A stretch of 45,430 bases of DNA from assembly GCA_017619885.1 (NCBI GenBank), contig JAFZRM010000030.1, forward strand, positions 1 through 45,430. Direction: 5' to 3'. Positions 2,678 to 20,088 of the stretch are shown here, piece by piece. The number at the start of each line of letters is the position of its first letter. Position 1 is the first letter of the stretch. Source of the DNA: Clostridia bacterium (GTDB lineage: Bacteria > Bacillota > Clostridia > Oscillospirales > CAG-272). Position numbers and translations under genes: made by a program. The notes beneath the pieces were generated by a model. That model saw only the letters and a program-made list of their open reading frames with translations, ran no database searches and was not told where the DNA came from.

Positions 2678-2695
2678 CCGAAGTGTCAAATAATC

Positions 2696-3766
2696 TTATT
2701 TTTTATTGCAAGTGTGATCCAGGTAACAGAATAACGGTTGATTATTTGTATAGTCCCACGTATGTGCTGAATCTCCTCCGCAAATAACACGTTCCGGGCA
2801 ATTTATACATTTTAAGCAATCTGTCGTCCTATCTCTTCTGAAGACCTCAAAACGATTTTGCCATGCTGACCAGAAGTCGTCTGTATGTATATTTCCTTGC
2901 GTCAGCTCCGGTTTATTTATGATGTCCAGACAAGCACAAATATCCCCGTTGCTTCGTACGCTTGCGGTTAATATGCCCGCTCCGCATAAGAAGTAATGAT
3001 CGCGCACCATCCTTTCATGTTCTGACCCGAGATAATGCGAACAACCAAAAGTAACCTCCATACCACATTCGGGATCAAATCGCTTTTCGCGGATAAATGA
3101 CAGCAAGTATGTAAATTGTTCCGGCGTCAGCATAAGATCGTCGTATTCACATGCCCGTCCGATCGGCTCGATATTGACCGGGCGCCAACTTCTGACGCCT
3201 ATAGTCTTGAGAAACTCGTATGTTTTTTCGAGTTCGTCGATATTATTCCGGTGAATGACCGTTGTGACCTGAGGTTCAAAACCTGCTTTTTGCAGCAGTT
3301 CCAATCCGCGGACCGCAAGACGCCATGCTCCCTTATATCTTCTCAATGAATCATGGGAAGCTTCCAGCCCGTCCAGACTGACAGATACAGTCGACATTCC
3401 GGTTTGCTTGAGACTGTTTGCCGTTGCTTCGTTTATCAGAGTGGCATTCGTAGTCATTCCCCATAAAAAGCCCAGAGACCGTACACATTCGGCGATCTCA
3501 AAAAAACCTTTATGTAATAAAGGCTCCCCTCCGGTCAAGCAGATCGAAGGCTTTTCATCTCTGATAGATAGCAGCGTGGTCCTGACGTCTTCAATCGCCA
3601 GGTCTTGTCCTTCTGAAGAACAACCGCTGCCGCAATGCGCGCATTTTAGATTGCATCTGTTCGTTATTTCGAAAAAGAGCCATCGAAGATGCGGGGCGGT
3701 CTGCAGATACTTTCTATGCTGAGCAACACGTTCAAGCTGAGAGCGCTTTAATGCTATTATGTCCAT
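2696..3766 (-). CDS. radical SAM enzyme with C-terminal SPASM/twitch Cys clusters (peptide/protein-modifying type)
   Basis: CNLKCAHC (CxxxCxxC) near the N-terminus. GGEPLL. C-terminal CGAGILTASVRSNGDICAC and CLKCINCPERVICGGDS. The ATG overlaps the stop of the upstream zinc-ribbon gene by 10 nt. Confidence 0.85.
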   Translation of the reverse strand: MDIIALKRSQLERVAQHRKYLQTAPHLRWLFFEITNRCNLKCAHCGSGCSSEGQDLAIEDVRTTLLSIRDEKPSICLTGGEPLLHKGFFEIAECVRSLGFLWGMTTNATLINEATANSLKQTGMSTVSVSLDGLEASHDSLRRYKGAWRLAVRGLELLQKAGFEPQVTTVIHRNNIDELEKTYEFLKTIGVRSWRPVNIEPIGRACEYDDLMLTPEQFTYLLSFIREKRFDPECGMEVTFGCSHYLGSEHERMVRDHYFLCGAGILTASVRSNGDICACLDIINKPELTQGNIHTDDFWSAWQNRFEVFRRDRTTDCLKCINCPERVICGGDSAHTWDYTNNQPLFCYLDHTCNKK

Positions 3767-4059
3767 ATATCATCATCTTTTGATAGAATAAAGCTCTCAA
3801 ATCTGGTTTCTTTATAGTTTTTTGCCGGAGCAGAACCCCCGCACTGCGGACACCACCGCTGCTTGTCATCCATTTGATTCGTTTCCCACGAGAATCCGCA
3901 GTTGGCGCACGTATGGACTCTCCTGATCGGCGGAGGTCCGTAAAGGCACGCAAAGCGTTCTTCAATAAAATCTGGTTTTCCCATCGGAGCACCGCAAAAA
4001 CGGCAGTACTTATCTCCTTCAATATATGTGTTCTTGCAATTTGAACAAACTTTACGCAT
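3757..4059 (-). CDS. 100-aa double zinc-ribbon, Cys-rich protein
   Basis: MRKVCSNCKNTYIEGDKYCRFCGAP...HTCANCGFSWET...RWCPQCGG contains four CxxC pairs plus one extra Cys. AAGGAG lies 8 nt upstream of the ATG at 4059. The longer TTG start at 4077 was rejected because the SD lies inside it. Confidence 0.75.
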   Translation of the reverse strand: MRKVCSNCKNTYIEGDKYCRFCGAPMGKPDFIEERFACLYGPPPIRRVHTCANCGFSWETNQMDDKQRWCPQCGGSAPAKNYKETRFESFILSKDDDIWT

Positions 4060-4106
4060 ATATCTTTCTCCTTGCAATTTATGATTATTATTTAACTACG
4101 CGAATT

Positions 4107-5519
4107 TTAATTATTATTTTCCAATTTTTCAAGTTCTCTTCGATGATATTCAATGCTCCGTTCTTTGCAAAACTCTTTAGCATAGCCGTAATAGTTGTTA
4201 TCTTTCGGTATCATTTCGATTATTTCTTCCAGCTCCCTGATCTCGGAAACATAGTCATATTCGTCTTCTTTTTTATCAGACCCTATCGATTCCACGTATC
4301 GCAACCGGCAGCAATTATAGCGAGCCGTCGGGAAGATCGACGAGAGATACGAAAGATTTTGTTTTAATTCGATATATTCGGCATATGAGATCTCTTCTCC
4401 CGGTCCTTCCCTGCCTGGCAGCTTCTTATTTTTCTTAACACACAAATCATTCACCAAACCGGTGGTTATACCGTTAAGATATACAAGATTCGCTTTTGAT
4501 TTTGCGATACTCTCCATTTCGTTTTTTATTTCATCTTTTTTGTCATCCGGCAAAGAAATATCCTTTCGGATGATCATCGCAGAAGCGCCGTTTGCAGCCA
4601 GATCGTTATTCTCTTTTATAGCATAAACGTATAGTATTCTGAATGCCAATGCTAGATCATCGTGATCGCTTTTTATATCGTTCAAAAAACTGAATTTTGG
4701 ATCTGAATCAATTATCTTTCCGATTTTTCTTTCAATAGAAGTTTTTACTTCATAATAGGCTTCAATAACATCGTTTTCAGTCACGACCCCCATTTTCAGA
4801 CTGTTCCTGTTTTTCCGCAAAAACAATCCTATATCGATCATCACGATAGGAGAGCGGCTGTATGATTTATATATCCTTGCCGCTTCGGCCAATCTTCCGA
4901 CGTTTGAGCAGTAATCCCCGGCCAGCAATGAAGCTTGCTCATTATATCCGGCAAAACGCCGCAAAATGCTGTAACGCGGTTCCTCATCAAATCTGAACAC
5001 GTAGCTTTGGTTGATCATATTCTGAGCATGCATATGCGGCATAAAAAACGGTTTATTGAATCCGTGTACAATAACAGTATAAAAGACGTCAAGACAAGCA
5101 GTTTCCTTCGTCTCATCCGATGCTTTTTCGTCTTGCAGCACTTTTCTGCAGTTTTCGATCGACGCCATCTCATCGCGTTCAAAGAAACGGTATCTGGCAT
5201 CTTCAGTCATCTTCAGCGCCAGATAATATTTGGCGTCACGATCGATCAGATCTGTTATACGTGATACATTGTTTTTTAATTGAGCGCTTTTTTTCGTTAA
5301 ATCGCTGAACTTTGAAATCAGCGTGCCGCACTCCGATTGAACGCATTTAATATACTTGCTCTTCATCTTCTGCTCGACAAGTCCATCCAATAGTATGCCC
5401 AGCACCTGAACGATTTTTGTCATACCTTCGATGTTTTCGGCCAGCTTTTCGCAAACTGTTTTGATATTCAGTTTATCATAGATTTCTTCTGTTTCTACAC
5501 TGCTCTTTTGAATTTTCAT
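4107..5519 (-). CDS. hypothetical protein, 470 aa, predicted all-helical, no family recognised
   Basis: Long ORF in the AT-rich island. GGAG/AAGGGG SD upstream of the ATG (MKIQKSS). A consensus promoter lies immediately upstream. First gene of the minus operon. Confidence 0.7.
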   Translation of the reverse strand: MKIQKSSVETEEIYDKLNIKTVCEKLAENIEGMTKIVQVLGILLDGLVEQKMKSKYIKCVQSECGTLISKFSDLTKKSAQLKNNVSRITDLIDRDAKYYLALKMTEDARYRFFERDEMASIENCRKVLQDEKASDETKETACLDVFYTVIVHGFNKPFFMPHMHAQNMINQSYVFRFDEEPRYSILRRFAGYNEQASLLAGDYCSNVGRLAEAARIYKSYSRSPIVMIDIGLFLRKNRNSLKMGVVTENDVIEAYYEVKTSIERKIGKIIDSDPKFSFLNDIKSDHDDLALAFRILYVYAIKENNDLAANGASAMIIRKDISLPDDKKDEIKNEMESIAKSKANLVYLNGITTGLVNDLCVKKNKKLPGREGPGEEISYAEYIELKQNLSYLSSIFPTARYNCCRLRYVESIGSDKKEDEYDYVSEIRELEEIIEMIPKDNNYYGYAKEFCKERSIEYHRRELEKLENNN

Positions 5520-5538
5520 ATCATCACCCCTTTTCTCC

Positions 5539-5567
5539 ATTATACAACACATTCTTGGAATTGTCAA
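5539..5567 (-). promoter_or_regulatory. consensus sigma-70 promoter of the minus operon
   Basis: Minus strand reads TTGACA (5567-5562), 17 nt, TATAAT (5544-5539). It sits about 20 nt upstream of the ATG at 5519, so the leader is very short. Confidence 0.6.
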
Positions 5568-5615
5568 CTATAGAATATGATTATTTTTTTGATTTTCCGT
5601 AATATTATCACGACT

Positions 5616-5719
5616 TTTCCAGATTATTCTCAAGAATACTTGACAGATTTTGATGTTATTCTTAATTTCGCTGGCCAACAGAAAATTTTTTCCAGATAAT
5701 TCTCGAATACTATTGACAA
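5616..5719. promoter_or_regulatory. two copies of an imperfect 31-bp direct repeat (5616-5646, 5689-5719), candidate operator pair
   Basis: TTTTCCAGATTATTCTCAAGAATACTTGACA versus TTTTCCAGATAATTCTCGAATACTATTGACA. Each ends in TTGACA and contains a small ATTCT..AGAAT / ATTC..GAAT dyad. Confidence 0.5.
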
Positions 5720-5741
5720 ATCCAGAAAATAGTATATAATA
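5714..5741 (+). promoter_or_regulatory. sigma-70 promoter of the six-gene plus operon
   Basis: TTGACA (5714-5719), 16 nt, TATAAT (5736-5741). This implies a 5' UTR of about 150 nt before the ATG at 5899. Confidence 0.55.
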
Positions 5742-5898
5742 TATGTTGACGTTTCTTAAAATCAGTATCATCGTTAGTTATGATCCACGTGCTTTGGTAA
5801 GCGATCACTTATTACGTTACTACATCAAAATACGATTCATATATATATGCGCTCTCATGTGCAAATCGTTATACAGAATCAATTGAAGGAGACCTGAA

Positions 5899-7164
5899 AT
5901 GGAAATAAAACGCTGCGGTGATGACGTCGTCGATTACAAGATAGATATTTGTGATCCGTATTCATTCAGAAAGCTTAAGCAAGACGTCTTCAGCTCATAT
6001 CGAAACAAGAGAAATGCCGGGTTCGATATATCTAACGTATACGAAGACTTCGGAGAAATGCTCGTAATGGGTGTGAACACGCTTGTTCTTGATTACTATT
6101 ATCTGATCAGTGAGCTGTCAAAAAAATTCAAGGTCATAATGCTCGGAGAAGACTTCGGGCTCTCATCCGTTTCTTATCTTTTGGGGTTGAGTACCTATAA
6201 TTCCGGCCAGCTCAAAACAAACATTGAATACGGGCAGTTTTGGCCGTCGCGTCTCAGCTTTGGAATCGACAGAAGTAAAGCGTCGGATTTTGAAGAAGCA
6301 ATACGAGCTTTTGATACCGACGAGCACGGGAATCTGCCCGGTGTAAACGAAAAGTACGGCGAGGATTCAAACCGCGTTGAAACCATAAAGATGGGCCAGA
6401 GACCCGTAACGATCAAGGTCCGTTACATCGACACAAAGCGCTTTCGTTTGTTAACAGACAACGAACCAGATTATTCAGCTCTGCCTTTTCCGAAAATCGC
6501 AGCGGATACGTTATACGATCTGCTCGATGGTAAAACTGAATGTTATCGCATAGGAGAGGAATCTGCAGAATTGATCGAACCCCTCCTGACCATGTTCAAA
6601 CCTGAATCGTTTAAGGAGCTTGAACAGGTCTGCGCTCTTTTGCTGGCAAGCAGAGATTCGGCGGATGTCATACTCAAAAGGAGAGAATCCGGCTTTGAAC
6701 ACTGGGAGATGTACTTGTCAAAAGAGAGCTTTGCACGCTTTGTTTTCGGGATCGACGGCTATTATGATGACGCCGTCCGACTGATCTCAAGAATGGACGA
6801 CGGAACAGTCGGCGATGAAGATATCGAAATACTTAAAGATCTCGGTACAAGCGATGACGTGATCAACGATATCTGTAAGATGCGCAGCATTCCTTGCAGA
6901 GCTTTTGCAGCAGATCTTGCCAGGATCGTGTGGCGCAGTCAGCTTGAGAAAAACGCGATATCTGAGCTTCGTGACTTCTGGCCCTTGTCGGATGATCCCG
7001 ATACTGACGATCGCGAGCAGGAGATCCTTGACCGTATTCCCTGCACTGACGAGGGCATGAAAGCTGTAAAAGACTATCTCGAATCTTATGAAAGCTATCA
7101 GGCTCGCGATCGGTTAAGAGAAATACGTGAGGAACTGAACTGGCGGCGCTTTGCCGGCATATAA
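5899..7164 (+). CDS. hypothetical protein A (421 aa); by-eye resemblance to a truncated DnaE/PolC (Pol III alpha) palm-fingers core
   Basis: AAGGAG 7 nt upstream of the ATG. Motifs occur in DnaE order: GEDFGLSSVSYLLGLST (cf. [19 protein letters not shown]), QFWPSRLSFGID (cf. RFLNPERVSMPDIDID), VRYIDTKRFRLLT (cf. VKFDFLGLRTLT), YRIGEES (cf. GVFQLES), FKPESFKELEQVCALLLASRD (cf. LKPDRFEDIIALVALYRPGP). The coding call is solid; the homology call is tentative. Confidence 0.8.
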   Translation: MEIKRCGDDVVDYKIDICDPYSFRKLKQDVFSSYRNKRNAGFDISNVYEDFGEMLVMGVNTLVLDYYYLISELSKKFKVIMLGEDFGLSSVSYLLGLSTYNSGQLKTNIEYGQFWPSRLSFGIDRSKASDFEEAIRAFDTDEHGNLPGVNEKYGEDSNRVETIKMGQRPVTIKVRYIDTKRFRLLTDNEPDYSALPFPKIAADTLYDLLDGKTECYRIGEESAELIEPLLTMFKPESFKELEQVCALLLASRDSADVILKRRESGFEHWEMYLSKESFARFVFGIDGYYDDAVRLISRMDDGTVGDEDIEILKDLGTSDDVINDICKMRSIPCRAFAADLARIVWRSQLEKNAISELRDFWPLSDDPDTDDREQEILDRIPCTDEGMKAVKDYLESYESYQARDRLREIREELNWRRFAGI

Positions 7165-7195
7165 AACTACAATACTTGAACAGGAGGCCTTTGCT

Positions 7196-8248
7196 ATGAT
7201 AAATATCAGCGATGATTTTGCTGACGTCAAACGTGTTGAAGCGTTCATTGACAAGCTTCCGGTACAGCCCGATCCTTCCGGTTTAATCGAGCTCAGCACG
7301 GACAACGGGAACAAGACGTATCGATATTACGTCGAAAACGACATACATAACGACAAGCTGTTGATCTTTGAGCCGATCAAAGGCATAAAACACGTCGTCT
7401 ATAGATCTCTGAGAGAAGATGAAAAACTGAAATATGCCGCAACTCCCGACGGTCGTGTTTTCTATTCAAATAACGCGCCCGGGAGCCACCGCATGTTTAT
7501 CAACAGGCTTCTCAGGCTGAATATACTGTCATGCTTCGACCCGAACGGGTTTGTAGCCGGATGCAATTATGATCCTATATGTTATCTCGGCGCAGATACA
7601 GATCACGTTGTATTTTCGGACGATAAAAACGTCATTAAGGCCGCGTCGGACGGAACGGAGACCGTTCTTTTCGAAGCTCCGTATGACTCTGATCTCTACC
7701 AGTATCTTGACCGCGACCATATTTTCGTATTTCACAAGAGTATACATAACAAAGTTAAGTACTGCGAATTTTATGACGAAACGGGAAAACTGCTGGATGG
7801 CCCTACCGACAGTTCCCGTGTTCTCGCTGTAGCGGGTTATCTCGTAAAGCTGATCATCGACGAAGACTCGTTTGTTCGCCTTATATTTAAGCGCCGCAGA
7901 AAAGCTGAGCAGAAAGTCGCCGACTTTCTCGAAAACGGATTTGAAGAAGATACCGTCACATACAACGTCTTATTCTCAATGATTAACGCGTGCACGCAGG
8001 CGCACGTCGTGACCGATCATAAGCTGCGTAATAATCTCGTGAAGGTTCTTAACTTTTACATACAGCTCGGGATCAGCGCCGATGTCTTCACCATGGCGTT
8101 TTTCGATATTTATAATCACTACGACGACTTAAACGAGGAAATGGTATCATGCCTCGAAAAGCTCGCAAACGACACGTCGCTTTCCTTTGAGGAAAGGCGC
8201 GCAATAGCTGCAAATGCTGATAAATTTATTAAATACAAGGAGAAATAA
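7196..8248 (+). CDS. hypothetical protein B (350 aa): beta-rich N-terminal half, helical C-terminal half
   Basis: AGGAGG 8 nt upstream of the ATG (MINISDDF). Same strand and composition as neighbours. No family recognised. Confidence 0.75.
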   Translation: MINISDDFADVKRVEAFIDKLPVQPDPSGLIELSTDNGNKTYRYYVENDIHNDKLLIFEPIKGIKHVVYRSLREDEKLKYAATPDGRVFYSNNAPGSHRMFINRLLRLNILSCFDPNGFVAGCNYDPICYLGADTDHVVFSDDKNVIKAASDGTETVLFEAPYDSDLYQYLDRDHIFVFHKSIHNKVKYCEFYDETGKLLDGPTDSSRVLAVAGYLVKLIIDEDSFVRLIFKRRRKAEQKVADFLENGFEEDTVTYNVLFSMINACTQAHVVTDHKLRNNLVKVLNFYIQLGISADVFTMAFFDIYNHYDDLNEEMVSCLEKLANDTSLSFEERRAIAANADKFIKYKEK

Positions 8249-8249
8249 C

Positions 8250-9344
8250 ATGAACACGAATCACGAAACCGAAACGGCGCGCGAACTCACGAAAGAGTAT
8301 TGCGGAACGATCATCAACGTTATCAACGACCGGAATCAAGTCCGTCTGTTAAGAAATGTCATACGGTCTTTCAGGCGCATCGGCATCGAAGACTACGAAA
8401 TGCCTGAAGCCATCGCCATTGTGATCGAAAACGGCTCCTTGAAGGAAAAGCTGATCAAAAACATAATCCGGATAGAAAAAAGAGGCGGTATGGACCGTGA
8501 TCAGAAGCTGGAATATGTAAAGGGACTCATTGCAGCAAAAAATTCCGAAAAATTCGCGTCGCTTTGTCCGGTCATCAAAGAGCCTTTCGAGGATTCTGAC
8601 GGTCATGACGATCCTGACGATCCTTACGATATTTATAAACCGCTCGAAAAACTCAGAAGATTCTCGTTCGATCCGGATCCTTTTGAAACGGGGGACCTCA
8701 TCGATTTTACAGACGTTGTACTGAGGCGTTATGACAAATACAAATTCAGCACAAATGAACGCGTAAAAGAGTTCTGGGTCACCAATGCAATAAAAATCTC
8801 CGAGGAACTCAGCCAGCACACAGACCGGAACATATCGGCAGTAACGGACGATCTCATTCTGAATACGGTATGCAGGATGGTAAGCGATGAGGTTAACAGT
8901 CACAAGATTTCCGTCCCTGAAATCGACTGGATCATGATGTCTGAAACCGTCAAATCTGTTTTTGACAGTTGGTACGATATCAATTATCTCTGCTTCTATT
9001 GCGACAGTCCTTACGCTAAGCTTCTCAAAATAGGAAATTATCTGCGTATAAACTATGACGATGGTTCTGAAACAGAAGACGACGATTCGTCTGGCAGCAT
9101 CTGGTCCTTAGACCGTTTTGAAAACAACAATAGAATCATATATCAGATCGTTTCACGCCCTGAGAGATATGAAAACATAGACGAAATGATTGCTGTCAGG
9201 AAGAATCCGAGGGACGGCTATCCCGGCAGAACGATCATGGTAGAGAATTGGATCAATTCATATGACGTGCATTCGATGGATAAGAATGAAGCCGGTCTTT
9301 ACGCGGTTAACGTCAAACGCGTTCATTTCAGTGACAACATATAA
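8250..9344 (+). CDS. hypothetical protein C (364 aa), acidic
   Basis: AAGGAG upstream. The ATG lies 1 nt after the stop of B (ggagaaaTAAcATG). Confidence 0.75.
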   Translation: MNTNHETETARELTKEYCGTIINVINDRNQVRLLRNVIRSFRRIGIEDYEMPEAIAIVIENGSLKEKLIKNIIRIEKRGGMDRDQKLEYVKGLIAAKNSEKFASLCPVIKEPFEDSDGHDDPDDPYDIYKPLEKLRRFSFDPDPFETGDLIDFTDVVLRRYDKYKFSTNERVKEFWVTNAIKISEELSQHTDRNISAVTDDLILNTVCRMVSDEVNSHKISVPEIDWIMMSETVKSVFDSWYDINYLCFYCDSPYAKLLKIGNYLRINYDDGSETEDDDSSGSIWSLDRFENNNRIIYQIVSRPERYENIDEMIAVRKNPRDGYPGRTIMVENWINSYDVHSMDKNEAGLYAVNVKRVHFSDNI

Positions 9345-9357
9345 TACGGAGGTTAAT

Positions 9358-11109
9358 ATGAAAGAGTACGCCACACGCTGGTTGTCCCCCTATTTATACA
9401 GAGACACCTCAAATCTCAGGCTTATGTACTGCAATTCCGTTATCGGCAGAAGAAAAAGCAGAAAGCAGGAAGAGCGGATAGACGAGGAAACAAGAATATT
9501 TGAAAATAACCCTCGTCTTGCAAACCGGTGCTTAACTTCGGTTTACTATCTGAAGTACCTTAATGAAAAAATCTCGGCCAACGGTTGTGTTATGCCGTGG
9601 AACGAGCCCTTGTGGTCGAGCGAAATCGTTTCTGCCGCTTTAGGCACTCCTTTTTCGCCCGTTGAAAACGAGCTGCCTTTCATTGACAGGGACTTCAATC
9701 AGCTCGTTATGTTCCCCGAGCCGGAAGATCTCCCCGAACTGATCGTCCTTGCGAATGAAAACTGTATGGGAGAGGTCAAAAAACTGACGGACGACTTCAA
9801 GAAAATTATAACTGATCCCGATATTATTGACACTGCGGACAAGCAGAAGTTTTTTGTCCGGGTCATCCCCATCAGCACCGATAGCCTCGCTTTGCTGTCG
9901 TGTTTCCAGAAAAACTATAAAAAGAGCATACTTAAGCGCCTTCCGCTCATGGATCTGGATCGCATCCCGAACGAAGTCCGTTATCTTTTCCCGTTCGTCG
10001 TCAACAAGGTCAAGCTGGACGTAGGAGTTGAGCCGTCATTCTCTTACTGTGTTGACGATCTGGCAAAAAAACTCATGTATGAGTACGGAGACGTCAGTAA
10101 ATCGTTCGCTTTGGTGTTCGTCAACTACGTTTATTCGCTTTGTTTGTCTGACGCTCTCGATAAAGCCTCCGGAAACGAAAAACAGTATCTTGAGTTGCTT
10201 CCGGAGAATACTCTTCTCGGCTACAGACATCTCGTTAAACATAACGCCGTTTACACGACCAAAGAATCCGTGGAACATCTGCTGTTTCATTTCAAGAATT
10301 ATCCGACAAAAAGCGAATATGAACGGAAAATGCTGCTTGAACGCTCATATTACACTTACTACGAGGATAAATGGCTTGAAGAAGAAGCCCGGCAATACAT
10401 ATACAAAGAAATCAAGCAGATCTGCAACGAATGGCCCTGCTATGATTTTCCGTGTGTCGTTGTCGAAATGTTGAGAGATAAGAAGAACGAAGTGGCGGAT
10501 ACAGTCCTTTCTTGGACCGGATCCCGCAATGTCGATCAGATTAATAAGCAAACGCTCCGCGAATATATCGGAGAGGCTGCCGCGGTACTTTATCGGAGCT
10601 GCTTTTCGCCTAAATCCATAGTATTCTGCGATGAATCGACCGAAGGTATTCCTTACGAAGAAGTAAGCTATCTGGATTACGTTGACTACGTTTCCAACTT
10701 GAATCTTATCCCCGACGATAAAGAATTCAAGCATTTTGATCATGCATCGTGGATACTCGTTTATAACCCCGATGATTTGGAGATGACGTGTTCTAAGATT
10801 TGCAATTTCATAACGGTATCCGCGGCTTCTGACAACACGCAAAAGCGTACTTTCCAGGTAGTTCGTCGCCGTTTATACAGCAGCATCGAGGATGCGATGG
10901 ATGATCTTGGGACGGAGCCTCTCGGCTTTGCAAACACAAGCGAAAAAGAAGCGATCAAAATAATCAAAAAGGCGAATGCACGGCACGAAATAGCAGATGA
11001 AAAAGAGGGGGTCATCGCTCTTAAGCTGATGCCTTTCAACGAAACACTGTTCGACCCGGCAGCAGCCGAACGGGATGGGGAGGAAATCAAACATGAAAAA
11101 GCACTCTGA
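9358..11109 (+). CDS. hypothetical protein D (583 aa)
   Basis: GGAGG 6 nt upstream of the ATG at 9358 (MKEYATRW). Long uninterrupted ORF. No family recognised. Confidence 0.75.
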   Translation: MKEYATRWLSPYLYRDTSNLRLMYCNSVIGRRKSRKQEERIDEETRIFENNPRLANRCLTSVYYLKYLNEKISANGCVMPWNEPLWSSEIVSAALGTPFSPVENELPFIDRDFNQLVMFPEPEDLPELIVLANENCMGEVKKLTDDFKKIITDPDIIDTADKQKFFVRVIPISTDSLALLSCFQKNYKKSILKRLPLMDLDRIPNEVRYLFPFVVNKVKLDVGVEPSFSYCVDDLAKKLMYEYGDVSKSFALVFVNYVYSLCLSDALDKASGNEKQYLELLPENTLLGYRHLVKHNAVYTTKESVEHLLFHFKNYPTKSEYERKMLLERSYYTYYEDKWLEEEARQYIYKEIKQICNEWPCYDFPCVVVEMLRDKKNEVADTVLSWTGSRNVDQINKQTLREYIGEAAAVLYRSCFSPKSIVFCDESTEGIPYEEVSYLDYVDYVSNLNLIPDDKEFKHFDHASWILVYNPDDLEMTCSKICNFITVSAASDNTQKRTFQVVRRRLYSSIEDAMDDLGTEPLGFANTSEKEAIKIIKKANARHEIADEKEGVIALKLMPFNETLFDPAAAERDGEEIKHEKAL

Positions 11110-11644
11110 TGTATTTCGCATTGTCGGATCCGCATTCGGGCCTGTTTTGGGATTTATCATACTTTATCTTTTTGGACTTAACTTTATGATGCGTTTTCTG
11201 ATTTACATCAACATCGCAATACACTATGATACGGGCTCTTATCCTTTATTCGAATGGTCAAACGAGCACCTGGCTTACCTCAATCTGGCACTGACAATAA
11301 TAATCGTTTTCTGCGGTATACGTTTTTTAACGAAGATCAAATCATATAAAACGCTGTCCGTTATCGCCTTGTCCTTCTGTGCGTTTTACACGATCATCTT
11401 CTTCGTTTTGAACACATACATTAAAGCGCTGAATGCAGAGCAAATATTCTACACTTGCGAACCGTTCTCATTCATATGGGACGAATACTGCCATGCCGAA
11501 TTATCATCTCCGAGAGGATGGGGACTGTTATCGTTGGCATTCTTCGGCATTTCCGTCCCGCTCTCGATCGTCATTGTCATAAAGCCGGTCATAAGCCGCC
11601 TTATCAATAAAATCGGAAAGAGGTTTTCACATGAAAAAGAATAA
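11093..11644 (+). CDS. small integral membrane protein E (183 aa, about 4 TM segments)
   Basis: Four long hydrophobic stretches. GGAGG upstream. The start overlaps the end of D by 17 nt. Confidence 0.7.
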   Translation: MKKHSDVFRIVGSAFGPVLGFIILYLFGLNFMMRFLIYINIAIHYDTGSYPLFEWSNEHLAYLNLALTIIIVFCGIRFLTKIKSYKTLSVIALSFCAFYTIIFFVLNTYIKALNAEQIFYTCEPFSFIWDEYCHAELSSPRGWGLLSLAFFGISVPLSIVIVIKPVISRLINKIGKRFSHEKE

Positions 11645-12194
11645 GCTGTTTCTTGTTTTAATTACGTCTGTCATACTGTGCGTCGTCCTGATCGTTTCTC
11701 TTCCCTCCTGTATCGTTACCTCAAAAAGCTCGGATACAACCGAAGAGAATACCGACGAGGGATCTGATGTAACCGTCGACATTGAAGGTTATTCATTTGA
11801 TGATATAGACGAGCTTCTCAGCGATGATTATTCTGAAGGAAACTATCAGCATAATCATAAAATTGAGATCTCGATCGAACTGGTAAAAGTACGGATCAAA
11901 GAGACGTATAACGATATACTTAAACAACTGGATGAGCTTTACGTCGCGATGTCCGAGAATGAGTACTTGCTTCACTATGAACGCGAAGACTATGACGCCC
12001 GCTTCGTCGTTCCGTTCAAGGAGTACTATACCAAGCAGATGAGCGTTCTGGCGGAGGGAGAAACCGCGCTTTCAGCGTTGGCCGGATTGTCTACGATGGG
12101 CGGAACAGCCGGGACTTCTATCGGATTGATGAAGATCTATACTCAGTATCGTAACTTTTATGATCTTCTGCTCGAGATCGATGGTATGTTTTAA
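11631..12194 (+). CDS. secreted/lipoprotein-like protein F (187 aa)
   Basis: MKKNKLFLVLITSVILCVVLIVSLPSC is a signal peptide with a lipobox-like LPSC, followed by an acidic linker. The start overlaps E by 14 nt. Confidence 0.7.
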   Translation: MKKNKLFLVLITSVILCVVLIVSLPSCIVTSKSSDTTEENTDEGSDVTVDIEGYSFDDIDELLSDDYSEGNYQHNHKIEISIELVKVRIKETYNDILKQLDELYVAMSENEYLLHYEREDYDARFVVPFKEYYTKQMSVLAEGETALSALAGLSTMGGTAGTSIGLMKIYTQYRNFYDLLLEIDGMF

Positions 12195-12306
12195 GCAGTA
12201 ACACTATTGGACCGTCGTATAAGCGTTAAAACGTTTTCATACTACCCAAACAACGTCAAACATAATACTTATGAGAATTTTATAACAATCAAAGGAGAAA
12301 CGAAAA

Positions 12307-12954
12307 ATGCCCACTTTTGCAACAGCAAGAATGAAATGCGCCGTGTGCGGCAAAGAAAGCGCTCACAGGGTCATATACAGTACCAACTGTTTCGGCTCTT
12401 CCGATCTGGACACGCGTCCGCCCGAAATGAAAAGAAGCACGATGGATTTCTGGGTTCAGGAATGTCCGAAATGCGGTTTTGTATCCGGGAGAATTGACGA
12501 CAGTACATCCATAACGCCCGAATTTCTTGAATCATCATCGTATAAAACGTGCGATGAGCTTTCGTTCAACTCGAAACTCGCGTCACGTTTTTACAGGCAA
12601 TACATGATCAAAGCATACGAAAACAACGAACGGGAGGCTTTCTTTGCATTGCTGCACGCTGCATGGGCATGCGACGATATGAACGACACCGAAAATGCGG
12701 CTTATTGCAGACGGGCTTCATAGCCATTTCTTGAGAGATTGATCGAACAATGCTCGAAAGACGCCGATCAACTCAGAGTTCTGAAAGCCGATGTAATGCG
12801 CCGTGCTTCATTATTTGAAGAACTTGCAGAAGAGTATGCGACCGTGCGTTTTTCCGACGATATACTGAATCACATCATCTCTTACCAGCTGTTTTTGGCT
12901 GCAAAAAAAGATACCGCGTGCCACAAGGTCGCAGACGCGGTAAACTTCCACTAA
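12307..12954 (+). pseudogene. zinc-ribbon + helical-repeat protein (DUF2225-like?) interrupted by a single in-frame TAG at 12721-12723
   Basis: ORFs 12307-12723 and 12739-12954 are in the same frame (both coordinates are 1 mod 3), separated only by TAG plus 5 sense codons. AAAGGAG SD upstream of 12307. CAVCGK...CPKCGF ribbon. Confidence 0.6.
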
Positions 12955-13003
12955 GCGAACAACAACGACGGTCAAGAAATAACAAACTGTCGGTCACATT
13001 CGA

Positions 13004-13789
13004 TCATTCGAACGTCTTCAACGGGAACCTCGGCTGCTCTTTTTCCAGAAGGCTCTTGACAGTATTGTACGTGTTAAGCCAATGATCTATGTTCAGATAC
13101 TCATCTCCGGTATGCTCATTGCAGTATCCGACACTGAAATTGACGCCGCAGATCTTTCTGCATAAAACCACGATATCCGTCCTCGAGGTTCTTCCCGCAT
13201 CGACGAAAGAAGTCTGCGATTCGATATAATCGCGGAATTCGTCTGTGACCGGCAGCGAATACGTTTTATAGTCGTTTCCGTTTCTTCTGTCAAGCTGTAT
13301 CATGTAATTATGTTCGTTTATTTCTTCAGCGATATCCGGATAATTCGACATCAGAAAATGCGCTCCTATCTGACCGTGCTCTTCACCGTCTGTCACCAAG
13401 AGGGAATGTCCGCTTTTTCTGAGCAGCCACAGCATTGCACAGCCGGCCCTGTCGTCTGCGCCTATTCCCCAGACATCCGATCCGCCCTGCCGTATGATGT
13501 TGCCGTCAATGGATATGCGATGTATCCTGTGCATCATATTCTTTTCCTCGAAATAGGCTTTCCAGGGATCCGAAGAATAGTATTTGTCCCATACGGTATC
13601 CGCGTGCGCGACAAGCAATACACGGTCTTTTCGCGTTCCCGGAACATAGACAAAATTATTTTTACCGCCGCCAAGAACCGGTATCGCCCCATCTAGCGAT
13701 AGAAACTTATCAAAAACCGGCATAGAATCTTCCAAATCACATGAAAGAAAACCGAATAATATCATTTTCTCAAGCAATTTATTACTCAT
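13004..13789 (-). CDS. M28/M42-like metallopeptidase-fold protein (261 aa)
   Basis: VLLVAHADTV..., GIGADDRAGCAML..., TDGEEHGQIGA... and a late NEH/IDH match the His/Asp/Glu-Glu metal-ligand pattern of the M28/M42/M20 clan. GGGGAGG SD upstream of the ATG at 13789. Confidence 0.6.
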   Translation of the reverse strand: MSNKLLEKMILFGFLSCDLEDSMPVFDKFLSLDGAIPVLGGGKNNFVYVPGTRKDRVLLVAHADTVWDKYYSSDPWKAYFEEKNMMHRIHRISIDGNIIRQGGSDVWGIGADDRAGCAMLWLLRKSGHSLLVTDGEEHGQIGAHFLMSNYPDIAEEINEHNYMIQLDRRNGNDYKTYSLPVTDEFRDYIESQTSFVDAGRTSRTDIVVLCRKICGVNFSVGYCNEHTGDEYLNIDHWLNTYNTVKSLLEKEQPRFPLKTFE

Positions 13790-13904
13790 ATATATCCTCC
13801 CCATAGTTAATAAGCAATCGGGCAATATAAAGGCAAAACGATCTGCGAGGCATTCATCTCGTCCACGCCTGAAGACGGTCGTTTGCACATTTCAATAATA
13901 CTCT

Positions 13905-14594
13905 TCAGATCTGCTTTTTGACCCACATTACAGGCCGGACTCCGATCTCAGATGAAATGTTTATACCGTCTCTCTGAATTTCGCCGTCGGCAGAAACGAA
14001 GGCAGCTTTGCTGTAATCAGAACCCGGCGAACGCAGCCACCAGCGACAGGCTCCGTGTGCGTCACTGTTCTTTCGTTCGGCATATTCCGTCGCTGTGCAT
14101 TTTAAATATCGGCTCATTCTAAGAGAAAAAACCATGCGCGCTTCATAGTAACTAAACAAAAAAACTTTGTCTTTCGTATCCTCTTCAAAATCCTGCCGTT
14201 CATCAGGACAGCACCAAGCCGGTCGTATAAGTTTTTTTTCTTCCGGAGAAAATGCGGAGTTGTAAAAATCATCGTTCAGCCATTTTCTGATAGATGAGTC
14301 TGCCCAAGTTATATCCTTGTGACTATCGTCATAACTTCGTATGTCCAGGGCATTTTTGGTGATAACAAGATACTTTTCTGTGTTATCATGTTCAATCCAC
14401 TCTTGCAAGATGATCCATTCAAGAGGCGTCTTCACTGCACCGACAGATTTCGTGAATTGCCCGAACGTCAGTGTTGAACCAACTTTCTGCGATCCGTAAA
14501 CCAGCTCCGGCATTTTCTTCTCCAGTTCTTCCGATATGATCGGTTCTTCGATCTTGGAAAAATCGTACTTTTTGGTCTTATTTGCGGAATTCAT
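13905..14594 (-). CDS. DUF6273 domain protein (229 aa)
   Basis: LEWIILQE..., ITWADSSIRKWLNDDFYNSAFSPEEKKLI, DKVFLFSYYEA, CRWWLRSPG and GVRPVMWV are hallmark strings of the Firmicutes DUF6273 family. GGAG 8 nt upstream of the ATG at 14594. Confidence 0.7.
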   Translation of the reverse strand: MNSANKTKKYDFSKIEEPIISEELEKKMPELVYGSQKVGSTLTFGQFTKSVGAVKTPLEWIILQEWIEHDNTEKYLVITKNALDIRSYDDSHKDITWADSSIRKWLNDDFYNSAFSPEEKKLIRPAWCCPDERQDFEEDTKDKVFLFSYYEARMVFSLRMSRYLKCTATEYAERKNSDAHGACRWWLRSPGSDYSKAAFVSADGEIQRDGINISSEIGVRPVMWVKKQI

Positions 14595-14613
14595 TTTTAT
14601 TTCTCCGATCTCT

Positions 14614-14751
14614 TTATTTGTTGTTTGTTCCATACAGGGGATAACGGTAACAAGCCCAAATCTCCTTCTGACATTTTGAGCAGTTTGTATAATTTGCATA
14701 TCGGCTAAGTAAAACTTTCAGAGCGAGTACGCGGGCAGAAATCGTTTTCAT
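14614..14751 (-). CDS. candidate 45-aa small ORF upstream of the DUF6273 gene
   Basis: Not in the supplied track (under 60 aa). Hand translation gives MKTISARVLALKVLLSRYANYTNCSKCQKEIWACYRYPLYGTNNK. AAAGGAG lies 8 nt upstream of the ATG. The stop is 20 nt before the next gene's ATG. Confidence 0.3.
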   Translation of the reverse strand: MKTISARVLALKVLLSRYANYTNCSKCQKEIWACYRYPLYGTNNK

Positions 14752-15015
14752 TGTGTTTTCTCCTTTCGTTTTGAAGACGGTTCTCCGTCTTTCTGCTTAT
14801 TATTGTATATGTTTATGCGACGCTGCGATCAGTCAAATTTTCGCGTTTCCGATGATATTTACGATCACATAATATCATTTCCGAGATTAGCGCATTTGTA
14901 TTATAGCATGTTTTTAGGAATTTGTCAAGACGATCTTCAAACTTTTTCTACGATTATTGTCTTTTGCTTCAGAAGACTTGTATTCAACTGTTTATCATAT
15001 AACAATGGCAATGTC

Positions 15016-15216
15016 ATGAAAGAGATTCAATGTGGCAAAACAGGCAGAGGGCGTGATTATATTTCAGAAGTTATTTATGATCCTTATGTACAATATGATA
15101 AAACAAATATTCTCCTTAATCACACGCTTACCGTTTACGGAATGAGACATCCGTCCTCCAAATGCGGTTACGATCCCGAAAAATATTCAGTTTTTTTGAA
15201 ATCAAAGCTGAATTGA
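15016..15216 (+). CDS. possible small hypothetical protein (66 aa, MKEIQCGKTG...)
   Basis: The ORF ends 16 nt before a strong bidirectional terminator, which argues for some plus-strand transcription. There is no SD and the start is uncertain. Confidence 0.2.
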   Translation: MKEIQCGKTGRGRDYISEVIYDPYVQYDKTNILLNHTLTVYGMRHPSSKCGYDPEKYSVFLKSKLN

Positions 15217-15231
15217 TAAATATGATAATTC

Positions 15232-15269
15232 AAAAAGCGTCTTTCATATCATCGTGAAAGACGCTTTTT
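15232..15269. terminator. bidirectional rho-independent terminator
   Basis: AAAAGCGTCTTTCA-8 nt-TGAAAGACGCTTTT forms a 14-bp stem with A/T runs on both sides, between convergent ORFs. Confidence 0.8.
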
Positions 15270-15324
15270 ATGTAAAGTTCCCGTGTTTTGACGTGCTCCC
15301 GCTTTCATAAGTTGTTGTTTTATG

Positions 15325-16629
15325 TTAAAGTGATACAAGAACAACACGGCAATTTGATTTTATCTTTTCTATATCCGCTGCGGTGAGATAGCTTTTTTCA
15401 AACAGAGCTTTTGCAATACCACATAACAGATCGTTGTTTTTCGCAAGTATTTCTTTTGTCTTGCGGTAAAGGCGTTCAATTTCAACCGCAGCCGCCGGAT
15501 CAACTCTTGCTTCGGTTTCATCCGGATTTTCAAATCTATCGAGGTGAAGATTAAAGCCGCCGGAGCAACATCCACCGATCAGCATCGTTACCGTACGGAA
15601 GGCTTGTTCAAGGTCACGTGAAACACCTATATCTGTTATACCGAATTTCTGCTCAAGCGCAGCTTTACCGGCAAGTGAAATACAAACGTCAGCCATTCTG
15701 TATTCTATAATGCCGTTATTTCCGTTATTATACTGAGAAGTGAAGCCTCCGGAGCTTTTATTGCCGCTGTATGCGGAAACAAGGGTAACGCTGCCCGGAT
15801 CAAGCACTTCGGCAACTGCAGCGTGTCCCGCTTCGTGCCATATAACACGTGTGACTTGCTCGTTTGCATCATATATGTCAACGTCTAAATGACCTCTGTT
15901 CAACACGTCGTTCGGTATGTCGTGAACAGTGTGCAGACAAGCTTTTATTACGTGATCCATCGTTATGACGTCCGCACGCTCGTAGCCCGCTAACAAGCCC
16001 GCCTCGTTTATTGCAGTTTCAAGTTCCGCACACGAGCAGCCGTCCAGCAGACGCGCAACGACTGCCGCATCTATCTCGCCGACGCACTTTTTTTGTTTTA
16101 TATAATGGGCCATTATATTTACAGCATCGTCGCCGCGGGGATTGCACACCTCGATCACGCGGTCAAATCTGCCTGCACGGAGCAGCGATGAAGGAAGAAC
16201 GTCAATATCGTTTGCGGTCGCTAAAACGAAAACGTCTTTGCCCTTTATGTTATCGATGCACGACTGCACCGTGACGTATTCCTCCTGATCACGACGGCGT
16301 GAATCTCCGTTTGCGAACTTGTCCATATCGTCAAGAAAAATTATTGACGGCGCGGTTTCTTTCGCTTCTTTGAAAGCGGCTTTTAACGCTTTTACAAAAT
16401 CGCCGTTCGGCTTGTCCTTGCGGCAGATTATCGCTTTGCGTCCGCTTGCTTCCATCAGAGCGCTCGCCATAAGAGTTTTTCCGACTCCGGGATCGCCGTG
16501 AAGCATCAAACCGCGCGGAGCTGTGACTCCGAGCTTTTTATACGACTCATTGTTTTTCAGCACGTCGCCTATCTGCATAAGCTCTTTTTTGATTGCATCG
16601 TAACCTATGACCTTGTCAAATTCTTTCAT
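15325..16629 (-). CDS. FtsH-like AAA+ ATPase fused to M41 zinc-protease domain, without transmembrane segments (434 aa)
   Basis: Walker A GDPGVGKT. Walker B IIFLDDMD. SRH ATANDIDVLPSSLLRAGRFDR. HEAGHA zinc motif. LAGKAALEQKFG...SRDLEQA. No N-terminal hydrophobic segments. AAGGAG SD. Confidence 0.85.
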   Translation of the reverse strand: MKEFDKVIGYDAIKKELMQIGDVLKNNESYKKLGVTAPRGLMLHGDPGVGKTLMASALMEASGRKAIICRKDKPNGDFVKALKAAFKEAKETAPSIIFLDDMDKFANGDSRRRDQEEYVTVQSCIDNIKGKDVFVLATANDIDVLPSSLLRAGRFDRVIEVCNPRGDDAVNIMAHYIKQKKCVGEIDAAVVARLLDGCSCAELETAINEAGLLAGYERADVITMDHVIKACLHTVHDIPNDVLNRGHLDVDIYDANEQVTRVIWHEAGHAAVAEVLDPGSVTLVSAYSGNKSSGGFTSQYNNGNNGIIEYRMADVCISLAGKAALEQKFGITDIGVSRDLEQAFRTVTMLIGGCCSGGFNLHLDRFENPDETEARVDPAAAVEIERLYRKTKEILAKNNDLLCGIAKALFEKSYLTAADIEKIKSNCRVVLVSL

Positions 16630-16940
16630 CTTTTTTTCTCCTTGCTTTGTTTTTCGCTGGCTAAATTATCGTAAATTTTTCTGTTTTTGGTCGGAAATCG
16701 GCACTGTTAACATAATATTAACATTTATTTCAGCTCGCTTATATTTTTATTTTATTATTTTCTGTAGCTTGATCGGCAAATATCATCGATCATATACCGA
16801 ATCTGCCTGTATAAAAACACCGCGGATCCGGCAAAGAACGCAGGGCTTACGGTGTTTTGTTATCTACTGTGACCGTTGATCAGGTTGCTTTTTTGACGTA
16901 CTGAAAGTCGAAAAATACTTCATTTATTTGTTCACACCCA

Positions 16941-16969
16941 TTGACAATTATTATACGGTTATGTATAAT
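16941..16969 (+). promoter_or_regulatory. consensus sigma-70 promoter
   Basis: TTGACA-17 nt-TATAAT, about 30 nt upstream of the GTG at 17001. Confidence 0.6.
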
Positions 16970-17000
16970 GTATATAATATCACGCGAGGCGTGAGGATTT

Positions 17001-18185
17001 GTGTCGATCGGAGATGATAAAACTCAAATGGAAGAAGTTACAATAGAAAAAAAGAAGCCGTTGACTCGGTTCGGCGAGATCGAGCTGCTGAAGGCGATCG
17101 CGATACTCGGACTGCCCGCCGTCCATCTGATGGAGGAAGCGCTTGAAGGCGGCTTTGCCAGCGAAAAGCTGACGAGCATCGGCATGGCGATAATACTTTT
17201 ATGCGCGTTCGGTCCCTCGGTATTCATGATCTGCATGGGCTTCGGCATCGGCGGCGGCAAGACGTCGCCGAAGAGCATCCGCAAGAACGGCATCCAGTTC
17301 CTTTTGATCGGGGCTATACTGAACGTTCTGCGCTGGCTGATCCCGGGCATTATCCAGATGATCGTTCTGAAGACGCCTCTGATCGAGGACGTCAAATTCT
17401 GCCTGCAGTCGGACATCTACTATTTCGTCGGCTTGTATTTCATCCTCTACTCTTTCCTCATCCAGTGGAAGATGAAGGCGCCGGGCATCGTCATGCTCAG
17501 CGTAATAATGCTTACGGCGAACACTCTGCTGACGCCGCTCACGCAGAAATACGTGACGAACGACATCGCCGCTTCACTTCTCGGCAACGTCGTCTACGTC
17601 AACGAAACGAGCTGCTTCCCGCTGCTGTCGTGGGCCATTTTCCCGAGCGTCGGCGTGCTTCTCGGCGAGATACTCAAGAAATCCGACGAGGAAAAGCGTG
17701 AGAACATCATGCGCCGTCTGCTCGACTTCTCGGCGGTGCTGTTCGGTTCGTTCTGCGTATTCCTTTATTTCTACAAGATTGACATTATAAAAGTCCTCGT
17801 CTCTCCGGCAAACGAATACATAACCGACCTGCCGAACGTCATACTGCTCCTCAGTCTGGCGATGTCGCTGCTCTCCCTCAACTACTATCTGTGCAAAAAG
17901 ATCGGCGCGTCGAAGTTCATGGAGTTCATGCTCCGCATATCGACGTTCATCATCCCGTTCTATCTGCTGCAGTGGGTCATCATTTCCTGGATATTCTACA
18001 CGATGAACATTCTGAAAGCGCCCGCGGGCTGCTTCAACGTCTGGATCTACGTCGGCTGCGTCATAGCCGTCACGGCGATCTGCATATTCGTGACGATCAA
18101 ATTCGGTATGAAGATAATGAAAGTTCTGCTCAAGATCACAACTTTCAAAAAGCGTAAACCTAAAAAGAAAAAGGAGACACAATAA
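17001..18185 (+). CDS. polytopic membrane protein, acyltransferase-3/DUF1624-like
   Basis: About 10 hydrophobic segments. The N-terminal RFGEIELLKAIAILGLPAVH resembles the R..D..RG.A....H opening of membrane acyltransferases. The start (GTG 17001 or ATG 17028) is uncertain. The stop overlaps the next ATG (TAATG). Confidence 0.6.
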   Translation: MSIGDDKTQMEEVTIEKKKPLTRFGEIELLKAIAILGLPAVHLMEEALEGGFASEKLTSIGMAIILLCAFGPSVFMICMGFGIGGGKTSPKSIRKNGIQFLLIGAILNVLRWLIPGIIQMIVLKTPLIEDVKFCLQSDIYYFVGLYFILYSFLIQWKMKAPGIVMLSVIMLTANTLLTPLTQKYVTNDIAASLLGNVVYVNETSCFPLLSWAIFPSVGVLLGEILKKSDEEKRENIMRRLLDFSAVLFGSFCVFLYFYKIDIIKVLVSPANEYITDLPNVILLLSLAMSLLSLNYYLCKKIGASKFMEFMLRISTFIIPFYLLQWVIISWIFYTMNILKAPAGCFNVWIYVGCVIAVTAICIFVTIKFGMKIMKVLLKITTFKKRKPKKKKETQ

Positions 18186-19792: not shown

Positions 19793-19795
19793 AAA

Positions 19796-20023
19796 ATGTT
19801 TGAAAGAACCGTAGCGATACTCGCCGATCATTTTGACGGCGACGCATCGGAGATCACAAGAGAAAGCGCGCTCGTCGACGATCTCGGCCTCAGCTCGCTT
19901 GAAGTCATCACGATCGTGTCGGAATTCGAATCCGAATTCGATATCGAGGTGCCGGACCGCGTCATCCCGACGCTTCGCACCGTCGGCGACATCGTTGATT
20001 ATCTCGAAAAGAACGCCGAATGA
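19796..20023 (+). CDS. acyl carrier protein (75 aa)
   Basis: LVDDLGLSSLEVITIVSEFESEFDIEVP is a DSL-type phosphopantetheine attachment motif. GAGGAGG SD. The gene starts 4 nt after the ligase stop. Confidence 0.85.
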   Translation: MFERTVAILADHFDGDASEITRESALVDDLGLSSLEVITIVSEFESEFDIEVPDRVIPTLRTVGDIVDYLEKNAE

Positions 20024-20038
20024 TCTGAAACGAACAGA

Positions 20039-20085
20039 CTCCCGGGTCCTGATCTTATCCAGGGTCCGGGAGCCGTTTTTATTTT
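20039..20085 (+). terminator. rho-independent terminator after ACP (also lies after the convergent giant gene)
   Basis: 13-bp stem 20039-20051/20060-20072 with two G-U pairs on the plus-strand RNA, followed by CGTTTTTATTTTTG. Confidence 0.7.
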
Positions 20086-20088
20086 TGT

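Follow-up and report, generated by a model that had tools for sequence, protein, structure and literature searches.

DNA polymerases of the C family are seen as large, essential and always PHP-containing replicases that form four groups (PMC3919608, PMC12926913). Both polymerase censuses left out sequences that were strongly diverged, truncated or without an intact active site (PMC3919608, PMC12926913). Dead polymerase folds acting as non-catalytic subunits beside conserved partners have been described in the Y and B families (PMC12926913, PMC3919608, PMC4304020), and our targeted literature searches found no description of a stand-alone, inactivated, PHP-less C-family homologue. Here we analysed a stretch of 45,430 nucleotides (nt) from a Clostridia bacterium (the whole of contig JAFZRM010000030.1, in the metagenome-derived assembly GCA_017619885.1, locus tags J5585_; hereafter the window), which contains a gene for a 421-residue protein, protein A. 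We put the probability at about 0.6 that protein A is a miniaturised, stand-alone C-family core, most likely a pseudo-enzyme that serves as a binding or scaffold subunit in a mobile-element module.

Among the described polymerases, PolC (Geobacillus kaustophilus, 3f2b and 3f2c; inhibitor-bound form, 9qpc) resembles protein A in its overall palm-fingers fold and in collinear fingers motifs, GIPEFGT corresponding to YRIGEES, P.tFseL to PesFkeLE, VRKGKG to RlraGk, and KIKYMFPKAHAAAY to kirYiPsRa.aa. However, PolC is about 1,440 residues long and has N-terminal, OB, PHP, inserted DnaQ exonuclease, Zn-finger, thumb and (HhH)2 domains, all of which are missing from protein A, and its D-x-D...D triad and GS motif are invariant, whereas the catalytic positions of protein A are not conserved. 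DnaE (Escherichia coli; Thermus aquaticus, 2hpi; Mycobacterium tuberculosis DnaE1, 7pu7) also shares the fold, with three collinear motif blocks (blocks 1, 4 and 5 below), and in DnaE, as in protein A, the GS helix leads to the first catalytic strand without an intervening Zn finger. Unlike protein A, DnaE carries PHP, thumb, beta-binding, OB and tau-binding domains and the catalytic triad. Reduced, divergent C-family proteins on mobile DNA are represented by a PolC-like protein of Cetobacterium somerae plasmid p3 (WP_330112558.1, 914 residues) and by short phage forms such as gp339 of Bacillus phage G (606 residues). The Cetobacterium protein is over twice as long as protein A and also lacks the Zn finger, but it retains the PDLD and KLDIL catalytic motifs and the PF07733 and PF17657 matches. 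It is encoded at 2721-5465 of its record (L018), where it is annotated as a hypothetical protein and has orphan genes and a helicase gene as neighbours; no other single sequence is closer to the protein A fingers. Mobile-element PolC-like polymerases are a plausible evolutionary source of protein A. The Y-family protein ImuB offers a further comparison, having lost its catalytic carboxylates and being accompanied, like protein A, by conserved partner genes. It belongs to a different polymerase family, and its partners are known and its cassette is regulated by LexA, whereas the partners of protein A are orphans and no polymerase partner lies nearby. Retention of the polymerase fold, loss of the catalytic residues and linkage to partners, the features of the ImuB-like concept, were all found for protein A; the likeness to ImuB is functional only.

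The homology is clearest in the fingers. A hidden Markov model (HMM) of five full-length family members (the window protein, P0002, P0005, P0006 and P0007) was searched against 177,635 distinct PDB sequences, and PolC of G. kaustophilus (3f2b) ranked first with E = 0.0086. Profile positions 226-344 aligned to the PolC fingers, covering RPKTFSELV, VRKGKGL and KIKYMFPKAHAAAY, while the next matches were Notch ankyrin repeats at the level of noise (E of at least 0.17). In profile-profile comparison with hhalign, against a PolC profile of 9 sequences taken from annotated plasmid and chromid records, family residues 209-346 aligned to residues 1139-1278 of Bacillus velezensis PolC with P = 1.9e-6 and a probability of 89.6%. 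The score of this alignment was 61.3, as compared to a maximum of 27.1 (probability 1.1%, P = 0.046) among 200 column-shuffled family profiles. The single Cetobacterium sequence aligned over the same fingers region with P = 6.7e-5. A 9-sequence DnaE profile gave a weaker but collinear match (residues 189-270 to DnaE 581-662, P = 0.028). With E. coli DnaE as a single sequence, hhalign was not significant, although collinear, and BLASTP likewise fell short of significance (E = 1.1), the best of its local alignments joining residues 165-309 of protein A to DnaE 557-707. The first-pass annotation, read by eye from the sequence, had described five blocks of C-family motifs in canonical order; all five are present, at residues 57-99, 113-124, 174-186, 206-222 and 233-253, and the BLASTP alignment spans blocks 3-5.

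In the fingers motifs, E220-E221-S222 corresponds to QLES of DnaE and PEFGT of PolC, P235..F238..E242 to P.tFseL, R298/G302 to RKGK, and P332/R334 to FPKAH/NKSH. The significant PolC alignment includes blocks 4 and 5 and adds two more, in which RlraGk pairs with VRKGKG and kiryiPsR with KIKYMFPKAH. R334 is invariant in the family and is aligned with the lysine of the KAH motif of PolC and the KSH motif of DnaE. The RKGK position is basic in four of the five members, the window protein reading MDDGT. These results establish that residues about 187-362 are homologous to C-family, PolC-like fingers, and on profile comparison the family is closer to PolC than to DnaE.

The family itself is extremely rare, with about five sequence types in 1.8 billion representatives. 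Two relatives of protein A came from a word-indexed search of 5.8 billion clusters, and an exhaustive HMMER search of 1.84 billion representatives gave six matches, comprising two fragments, three new full-length members (P0005, 420 residues; P0006, 402; P0007, 371) and one unrelated protein. The five full-length members share 20-39% pairwise identity and 14 invariant residues, and all are acidic (isoelectric points of 4.7-5.6), the fingers of the window protein having a net charge of -16. No match was found by tblastn in 50,697 phage and 72,556 plasmid records, nor any relative by pattern scans of 185,579 species-representative genomes and IMG/VR. Pfam, NCBIfam, PHROG and PADLOC models did not match protein A or its operon partners, no nucleotidyltransferase family of Pfam or NCBIfam matched protein A, and phmmer searches of the PDB sequences with protein A alone or with a two-sequence profile found no polymerase. 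The unrelated match, P0008 (752 residues), consists of seven helicase-associated (HA, PF03457) repeats and matches protein A only at residues 300-322. Its repeats match the fingers segment 'G.L..e.i..L..lG', for which the PolC equivalent is VRKGKGLTPE...VP, seven times, which suggests an HA-like helix-turn element inside C-family fingers.

The predicted structure extends the resemblance to the whole protein. A first AlphaFold model from two sequences had a predicted local distance difference test score (pLDDT) of 54 and was confident only at residues 196-340, and PolC structures already ranked 1-3 in its structure search. The model from five sequences reached a pLDDT of 79 and a predicted template modelling score (pTM) of 0.82. 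When it was compared with the PDB by Foldseek, as the first-pass annotation had proposed, the top 11 matches were all C-family polymerases, with E-values of 4.5e-5 to 0.046, probabilities of 0.98-1.00 and query-based template modelling scores (TMq) of 0.43-0.49. They comprised PolC (9qpc, 9qrl, 9qrn, 3f2b and 3f2c) and the DnaE proteins of M. tuberculosis (DnaE1, 7pu7), T. aquaticus (4iqj and 2hpi) and E. coli (5fkv and 4jom). The probability fell to 0.15 at the twelfth match, and no protein outside the C family exceeded this value. In the viral library (BFVD), the top 15 matches were phage C-family polymerases throughout, and neither library returned a non-polymerase nucleotidyltransferase or a rival fold. 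The predicted fold of the whole protein matches C-family polymerases only. The reading of protein A as a DnaE/PolC palm-fingers core was supported, profile and structure comparisons both finding the C family and no unrelated fold.

Within this model, blocks 1-3 are housed in a probable reduced palm, composed of alpha(60-73), beta(79-81), alpha(90-94), beta(118-124), alpha(125-136), a loop, beta(168-177) and alpha(179-186). The order alpha-beta-alpha-beta-alpha-[loop]-beta-alpha is that of a minimal Pol-beta-type nucleotidyltransferase palm. The loop is 25 residues shorter in P0002, and the three-helix tail that follows the fingers bears a family-specific motif, DFWPLSDDPD..DREQ.ILD.IP. With a confident model of the N-terminal half, the Foldseek alignments lengthened to about 540 columns, up from about 240, and TMq increased to about 0.49 (previously about 0.26); this is the effect that an aligned palm would have, the thumb and Zn finger showing as gaps. 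Block 1, which corresponds to the helix following the GS motif, was the top N-terminal hhalign match to both profiles, with a common motif and register (A87 to DnaE 366) and with residues 50-102 aligned to DnaE 328-381 at P = 0.096. By a rough estimate, a top match would fall near the pre-specified diagonal by chance in about 1% of cases per profile. The register claimed for block 1 was recovered against both profiles, but each match is weak on its own. Blocks 2 and 3 are supported only by the order of predicted secondary structure and by the global Foldseek match. When the thumb and Zn finger were deleted from the polymerase profiles, blocks 1-3 did not chain into a significant alignment. An alternative register, in which forced global hhalign placed residues 118-136 on the PolC strand bearing the third Asp, was discarded as unreliable, the fingers driving the score.

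A length of 421 residues leaves no space for PHP, thumb, clamp-binding or OB modules, and their absence, already noted in the first-pass annotation, was confirmed domain by domain. Only 56 residues precede the palm, without a PHP match in Pfam, and only 59 residues, folded into three helices, follow the fingers in place of the (HhH)2 clamp-binding domain and the OB fold, again without a Pfam match; the Zn finger is also absent. In place of the thumb, 29-54 variable and largely disordered residues lie between the 'catalytic' strands, as compared to 123-152 in PolC and DnaE. The short spacing reported between blocks 2 and 3 held as well, at 54 residues from D124 to D178 (29 in P0002) against 152 in E. 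coli DnaE (D401-D555) and 123 in B. velezensis PolC (D968-D1091).

The active site is degenerate. With D401, D403 and D555 of E. coli DnaE and D966, D968 and D1091 of B. velezensis PolC as the reference catalytic carboxylates, the aspartate counted as retained, D124, reads D/D/D/N/D across the five members (N in P0006), the position of the second reads S/R/R/R/T, and D178 reads D/G/D/K/S, with an aspartate in two of the five. The RGS triphosphate-binding motif falls inside a three-residue gap of the hhalign alignment and is replaced by ED, CD, VEQ, TDR or LED. No palm carboxylate is invariant, and the hG[GS] loop with three carboxylates of a minimal Pol-beta nucleotidyltransferase was not found. 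A single retained catalytic aspartate had been proposed in the first pass; the degeneracy stood, but even D124 is not constant, and the putative acidic triad proved not to be conserved in the homologues. Because the catalytic triad and the GS motif are not conserved in the family, protein A is most likely a non-catalytic pseudo-enzyme, although the acidic cluster near the carboxylate positions might retain residual metal binding.

Protein A is the product of a real, conserved and expressed gene, to judge from the intact open reading frame (ORF) conserved in five diverged full-length homologues together with its promoter and Shine-Dalgarno sequence. The promoter is of the sigma-70 type (TTGACA-16-TATAAT at 5713..5740, plus strand) and matches the consensus at 12 of 12 positions, and the Shine-Dalgarno sequence GAAGGAG lies at 5885-5891, 7 nt ahead of the ATG. 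Two 34-nt direct repeats (5615-5648 and 5688-5721; 76% identical, spaced by 73 nt, both ending in TTGACA) fall between the divergent perfect-consensus promoters of the upstream gene 'up' and of the protein A operon, and may represent paired operators or a promoter duplication. Protein A is encoded by the first gene of a same-strand string, A-B-C-D-E-F-G, in which the starts of B-G were corrected with homologue alignments and independent gene calls (Table 1). E-F-G (11093..12723) is a window-specific operon tail that is not conserved at other loci.

Table 1. Protein A, its predicted parts and the neighbouring genes in the window (res, residues)
Feature	Position	Strand	Remarks
Protein A ORF	5899..7164	+	ATG start, 421 res
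N-terminal segment, res 1-56	5899..6066	+	AlphaFold: strands 3-5 and 10-17, helices 23-36 and 44-56; beta-hairpin and two helices
Reduced palm (probable), res 57-186	6067..6456	+	AlphaFold secondary structure; houses blocks 1-3
Variable loop, res 137-167	6307..6399	+	In place of thumb/extra palm strands; pLDDT <50 at 142-166
Fingers domain, res 187-362	6457..6984	+	Homologous to PolC/DnaE fingers
C-terminal extension, res 363-421	6985..7161	+	AlphaFold: helices 367-378, 384-396 and 400-418
Upstream partner 'up'	4107..5519	-	About 470 res, orphan, divergent from A
Divergent promoter of 'up'	5539..5567	-	TTGACA-17-TATAAT, perfect consensus
Partner B	7196..8248	+	350 res, orphan
Partner C	8250..9344	+	364 res, orphan
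Partner D	9358..11109	+	583 res, orphan
Gene E	11093..11644	+	183 res, polytopic membrane protein
Gene F	11631..12194	+	187 res, lipoprotein-like
Gene G	12307..12723	+	138 res, zinc-ribbon protein
DUF6273 protein	13905..14594	-	Pfam E = 1e-27; 50% identity to the L008 homologue

The partner genes recur with protein A at other loci. A homologue of 'up' lies divergently upstream in three of the four loci of the other members (53% identity in L005 and L007, 25% in L008; BLASTP). B has homologues in L005 and L007 (37-38% identity, E about 1e-70), C in L005 and L008 (33-39%), and D in L005/L102 (43% in L005) and in the contig of P0012 (49%). Counting the window, 'up' accompanies four of the five family members, and B, C or D accompany three of the five. 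The DUF6273 gene recurs at three loci, including L008 and the P0012 contig. None of 'up', B, C and D had a match in Pfam, the PDB sequences or PADLOC, and a homologue search with 'up' recovered only itself, the word index being probably swamped by K/E-rich words. The sole match of partner D in the JGI metagenomes (L099, 2007-2108) covers 34 residues (73-106) at 50% identity, and is marginal, a distant relative or chance. A split polymerase, in which B, C, D or 'up' would supply the missing domains, was rejected at the sequence level (hhalign against PolC and DnaE, P of at least 0.14).

In the window, the operon is carried by a strain-specific insertion of 25.3 kb (2682..27997), in place of which the closest relative, the metagenome-assembled genome (MAG) RGIG10334, has about 135 bp (blastn). 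The flanks are about 90% identical in nucleotide sequence to RGIG10334, and the remainder of the window is collinear. The MalQ protein of the window shares 97% identity with its counterpart in this relative, a yak-rumen MAG, and 64-69% with those of Christensenellales MAGs. GC content is low at about 2-17 kb, i.e. in the left part of the insertion, and not in the right part, so that the insertion may be composite. No tRNA, integrase, att-like site or flanking repeat was found at its borders. Elsewhere, L005 has an SNF2-like helicase, a MoxR/DUF2201 pair and HepT as neighbours, L008 an ADP-ribosylglycohydrolase and an M50 peptidase, and in L102/L103 a type I restriction-modification system lies immediately upstream of B-C-D. 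In the P0012 contig (GCA_016648615.1), Maff2/TrbL/PrgI-VirB4 conjugation genes lie within a few kb of D. As far as these gene neighbourhoods show, the linkage of protein A to its partners is conserved in accessory or mobile DNA.

Taken as a pseudo-enzyme core, protein A would begin with a short cap and continue with a reduced palm of the Pol-beta type, the fingers and the family-specific three-helix tail. Its palm-fingers cleft, with R334 at the position of the KAH/KSH lysine, may bind the end of a nucleic acid, a nucleotide or a partner protein. In that case protein A could be a sensor or scaffold subunit without catalytic function, working with 'up' and, at most loci, with B-C-D, the model analogue being the dead Y-family ImuB in the ImuA-ImuB-DnaE2 mutasome. 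Because the module is found in rumen and gut Clostridia in regions that are mobile or hypervariable, mobile-element biology or inter-element conflict is the most likely setting. A bolder version makes protein A the first exapted dead C-family polymerase, the sensing or scaffold subunit of an up-A-B-C-D system on conjugative or mobile elements that recognises, for example, replication intermediates or 3' ends, or else the smallest active C-family-type enzyme, working through a re-wired acidic cluster; we regard this version as rather doubtful.

Several observations weigh against the pseudo-enzyme core as a whole or against its parts. PF07733, the Pfam model that the first-pass annotation had suggested as a check, and PF17657 matched none of the five members even at E <= 10, whereas both matched the Cetobacterium protein used as a positive control. 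In the N-terminal half, block 1 aligned to PolC (residues 87-102 to 890-905) with P = 0.14, within the shuffle null, and blocks 2 and 3 gave no hhalign signal above chance; of the blocks claimed at the outset, blocks 4 and 5 are thus the significant ones. The palm assignment leans on an AlphaFold model from only five sequences, and both the global root-mean-square deviation (14-17 A) and the TMq of about 0.5 are modest. Acidic residues lie near all three canonical carboxylate positions in three of the five members (E84/D85, D124 and D178/E180), and the acidic character of the family disfavours simple DNA binding. Concerning the module, the PADLOC-DB v2 defence models gave 0 matches at E <= 1 to proteins A-G, and the window insertion contains no integrase or type IV secretion system gene. 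P0002 stands without any partner gene, between GGDEF and flavodoxin-like genes, and in L005 B-C-D lie about 5 kb from up-A, with an insertion sequence (IS) fragment between them. Because P0002 is alone and B-C-D are separated from A in L005, the idea of one complex is not secure.

The acidic residues raise the question of activity. Protein A could be an active minimal nucleotidyltransferase or polymerase that binds metals with re-arranged acids, namely E84/D85 in the former GS loop, D124 at the end of beta-2 and D178/E180 after beta-3; its product might be a nucleotide signal or a short nucleic acid. All five members carry an acidic residue at 84/85, four carry one at 124 and four at 178 or 180, the basic fingers positions that contact the triphosphate are partly kept (R334 invariantly, R/K at RKGK in four of five), and the lone homologue P0002 lies amid GGDEF and HD-GYP nucleotide-signalling genes. 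However, the palm has no invariant acidic position, the 14 invariant residues being structural or belonging to the fingers and the tail. No register yields the canonical DxD dyad, and the GS motif is either deleted or acidic, which would repel the triphosphate. Moreover, the RKGK equivalent of the window protein is MDDGT, and processive templated synthesis is implausible without the thumb and duplex-binding domains. An active enzyme is therefore unlikely, and between the alternatives raised in the first pass the inactive core is favoured over a repurposed nucleotidyltransferase, D124 being an asparagine in one member. Alternatively, protein A may act as a polymerase mimic or decoy of a mobile element, binding a ligand of the PolC/DnaE palm-fingers surface, such as a replisome partner, a primer end or an inhibitor from phage or host, and thereby hindering or protecting host, phage or plasmid replication. 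Its fold mimics the essential PolC of the host, its acidic surface fits protein binding or DNA mimicry, its context is accessory and mobile, with conjugation genes near one copy of the module, and divergent PolC-like polymerases of mobile elements exist and are its closest single sequences. In Pol III, epsilon is bound by PHP, the clamp by internal and C-terminal motifs, and tau by the C-terminal domain. Protein A lacks exactly these known partner-binding parts, inspection by eye showed no clamp-binding QL[SD]LF-like motif in it, and we consider a decoy improbable.

A more radical objection is that the resemblance is spurious, an unrelated alpha/beta-plus-helical protein being pulled towards polymerases by AlphaFold and Foldseek, or that protein A is a decaying polC pseudogene fragment. 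The failure of the Pfam C-family models, the BLASTP result with E. coli DnaE, the lack of sequence significance in the N-terminal half and the alignment of only five sequences would all fit a spurious match. However, three independent lines of evidence agree, namely HMMER against the PDB sequences, profile-profile comparison with its shuffle control, and structure search in two libraries, and even the poor two-sequence model ranked PolC first. Decay is excluded by the full-length, intact and diverged homologues in separate genomes and by the strong expression signals. We give this objection very little credence.

As a conserved, degenerate PolC-like core of 370-420 residues without PHP and thumb, the pseudo-enzyme would imply that a palm-fingers unit by itself is able to fold and to come under selection, and would make protein A a natural minimal construct for palm-fingers studies. 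The finding also draws attention to orphan genes that are inherited together on mobile DNA. Its relevance for polymerase evolution and mobile-element biology is moderate to high, while the extreme rarity of the family limits its practical impact.

The window has several other features of note. The conserved chromosomal flank contains a Gut-1 small RNA (Rfam RF01706; 394-471, plus strand), whose 56.8 bits exceed the gathering score. A radical-SAM/SPASM enzyme (2696-3766, minus strand) is encoded at the left edge of the insertion, directly downstream of a small double-zinc-ribbon protein (3757-4077, minus strand); the pair may serve peptide maturation and be unrelated to protein A. An FtsH-like protein (15325-16629, minus strand) with AAA+ and M41 domains, in which AAA begins at residue 41, apparently lacks the N-terminal membrane anchor; its gene adjoins those of an M28-like peptidase (13004-13888) and the DUF6273 protein. 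Within 17001-27690 lies a Dlt-like trio, composed of a polytopic membrane protein (17001-18185), an AMP-binding enzyme (18185-19792) and a PP-binding carrier protein of 75 residues, which was called in L100. Beside this trio, and also inside the insertion, is the gene for a surface protein of 2,533 residues (20089-27690, minus strand) with Cna_B, Flg_new and beta-helix repeats.

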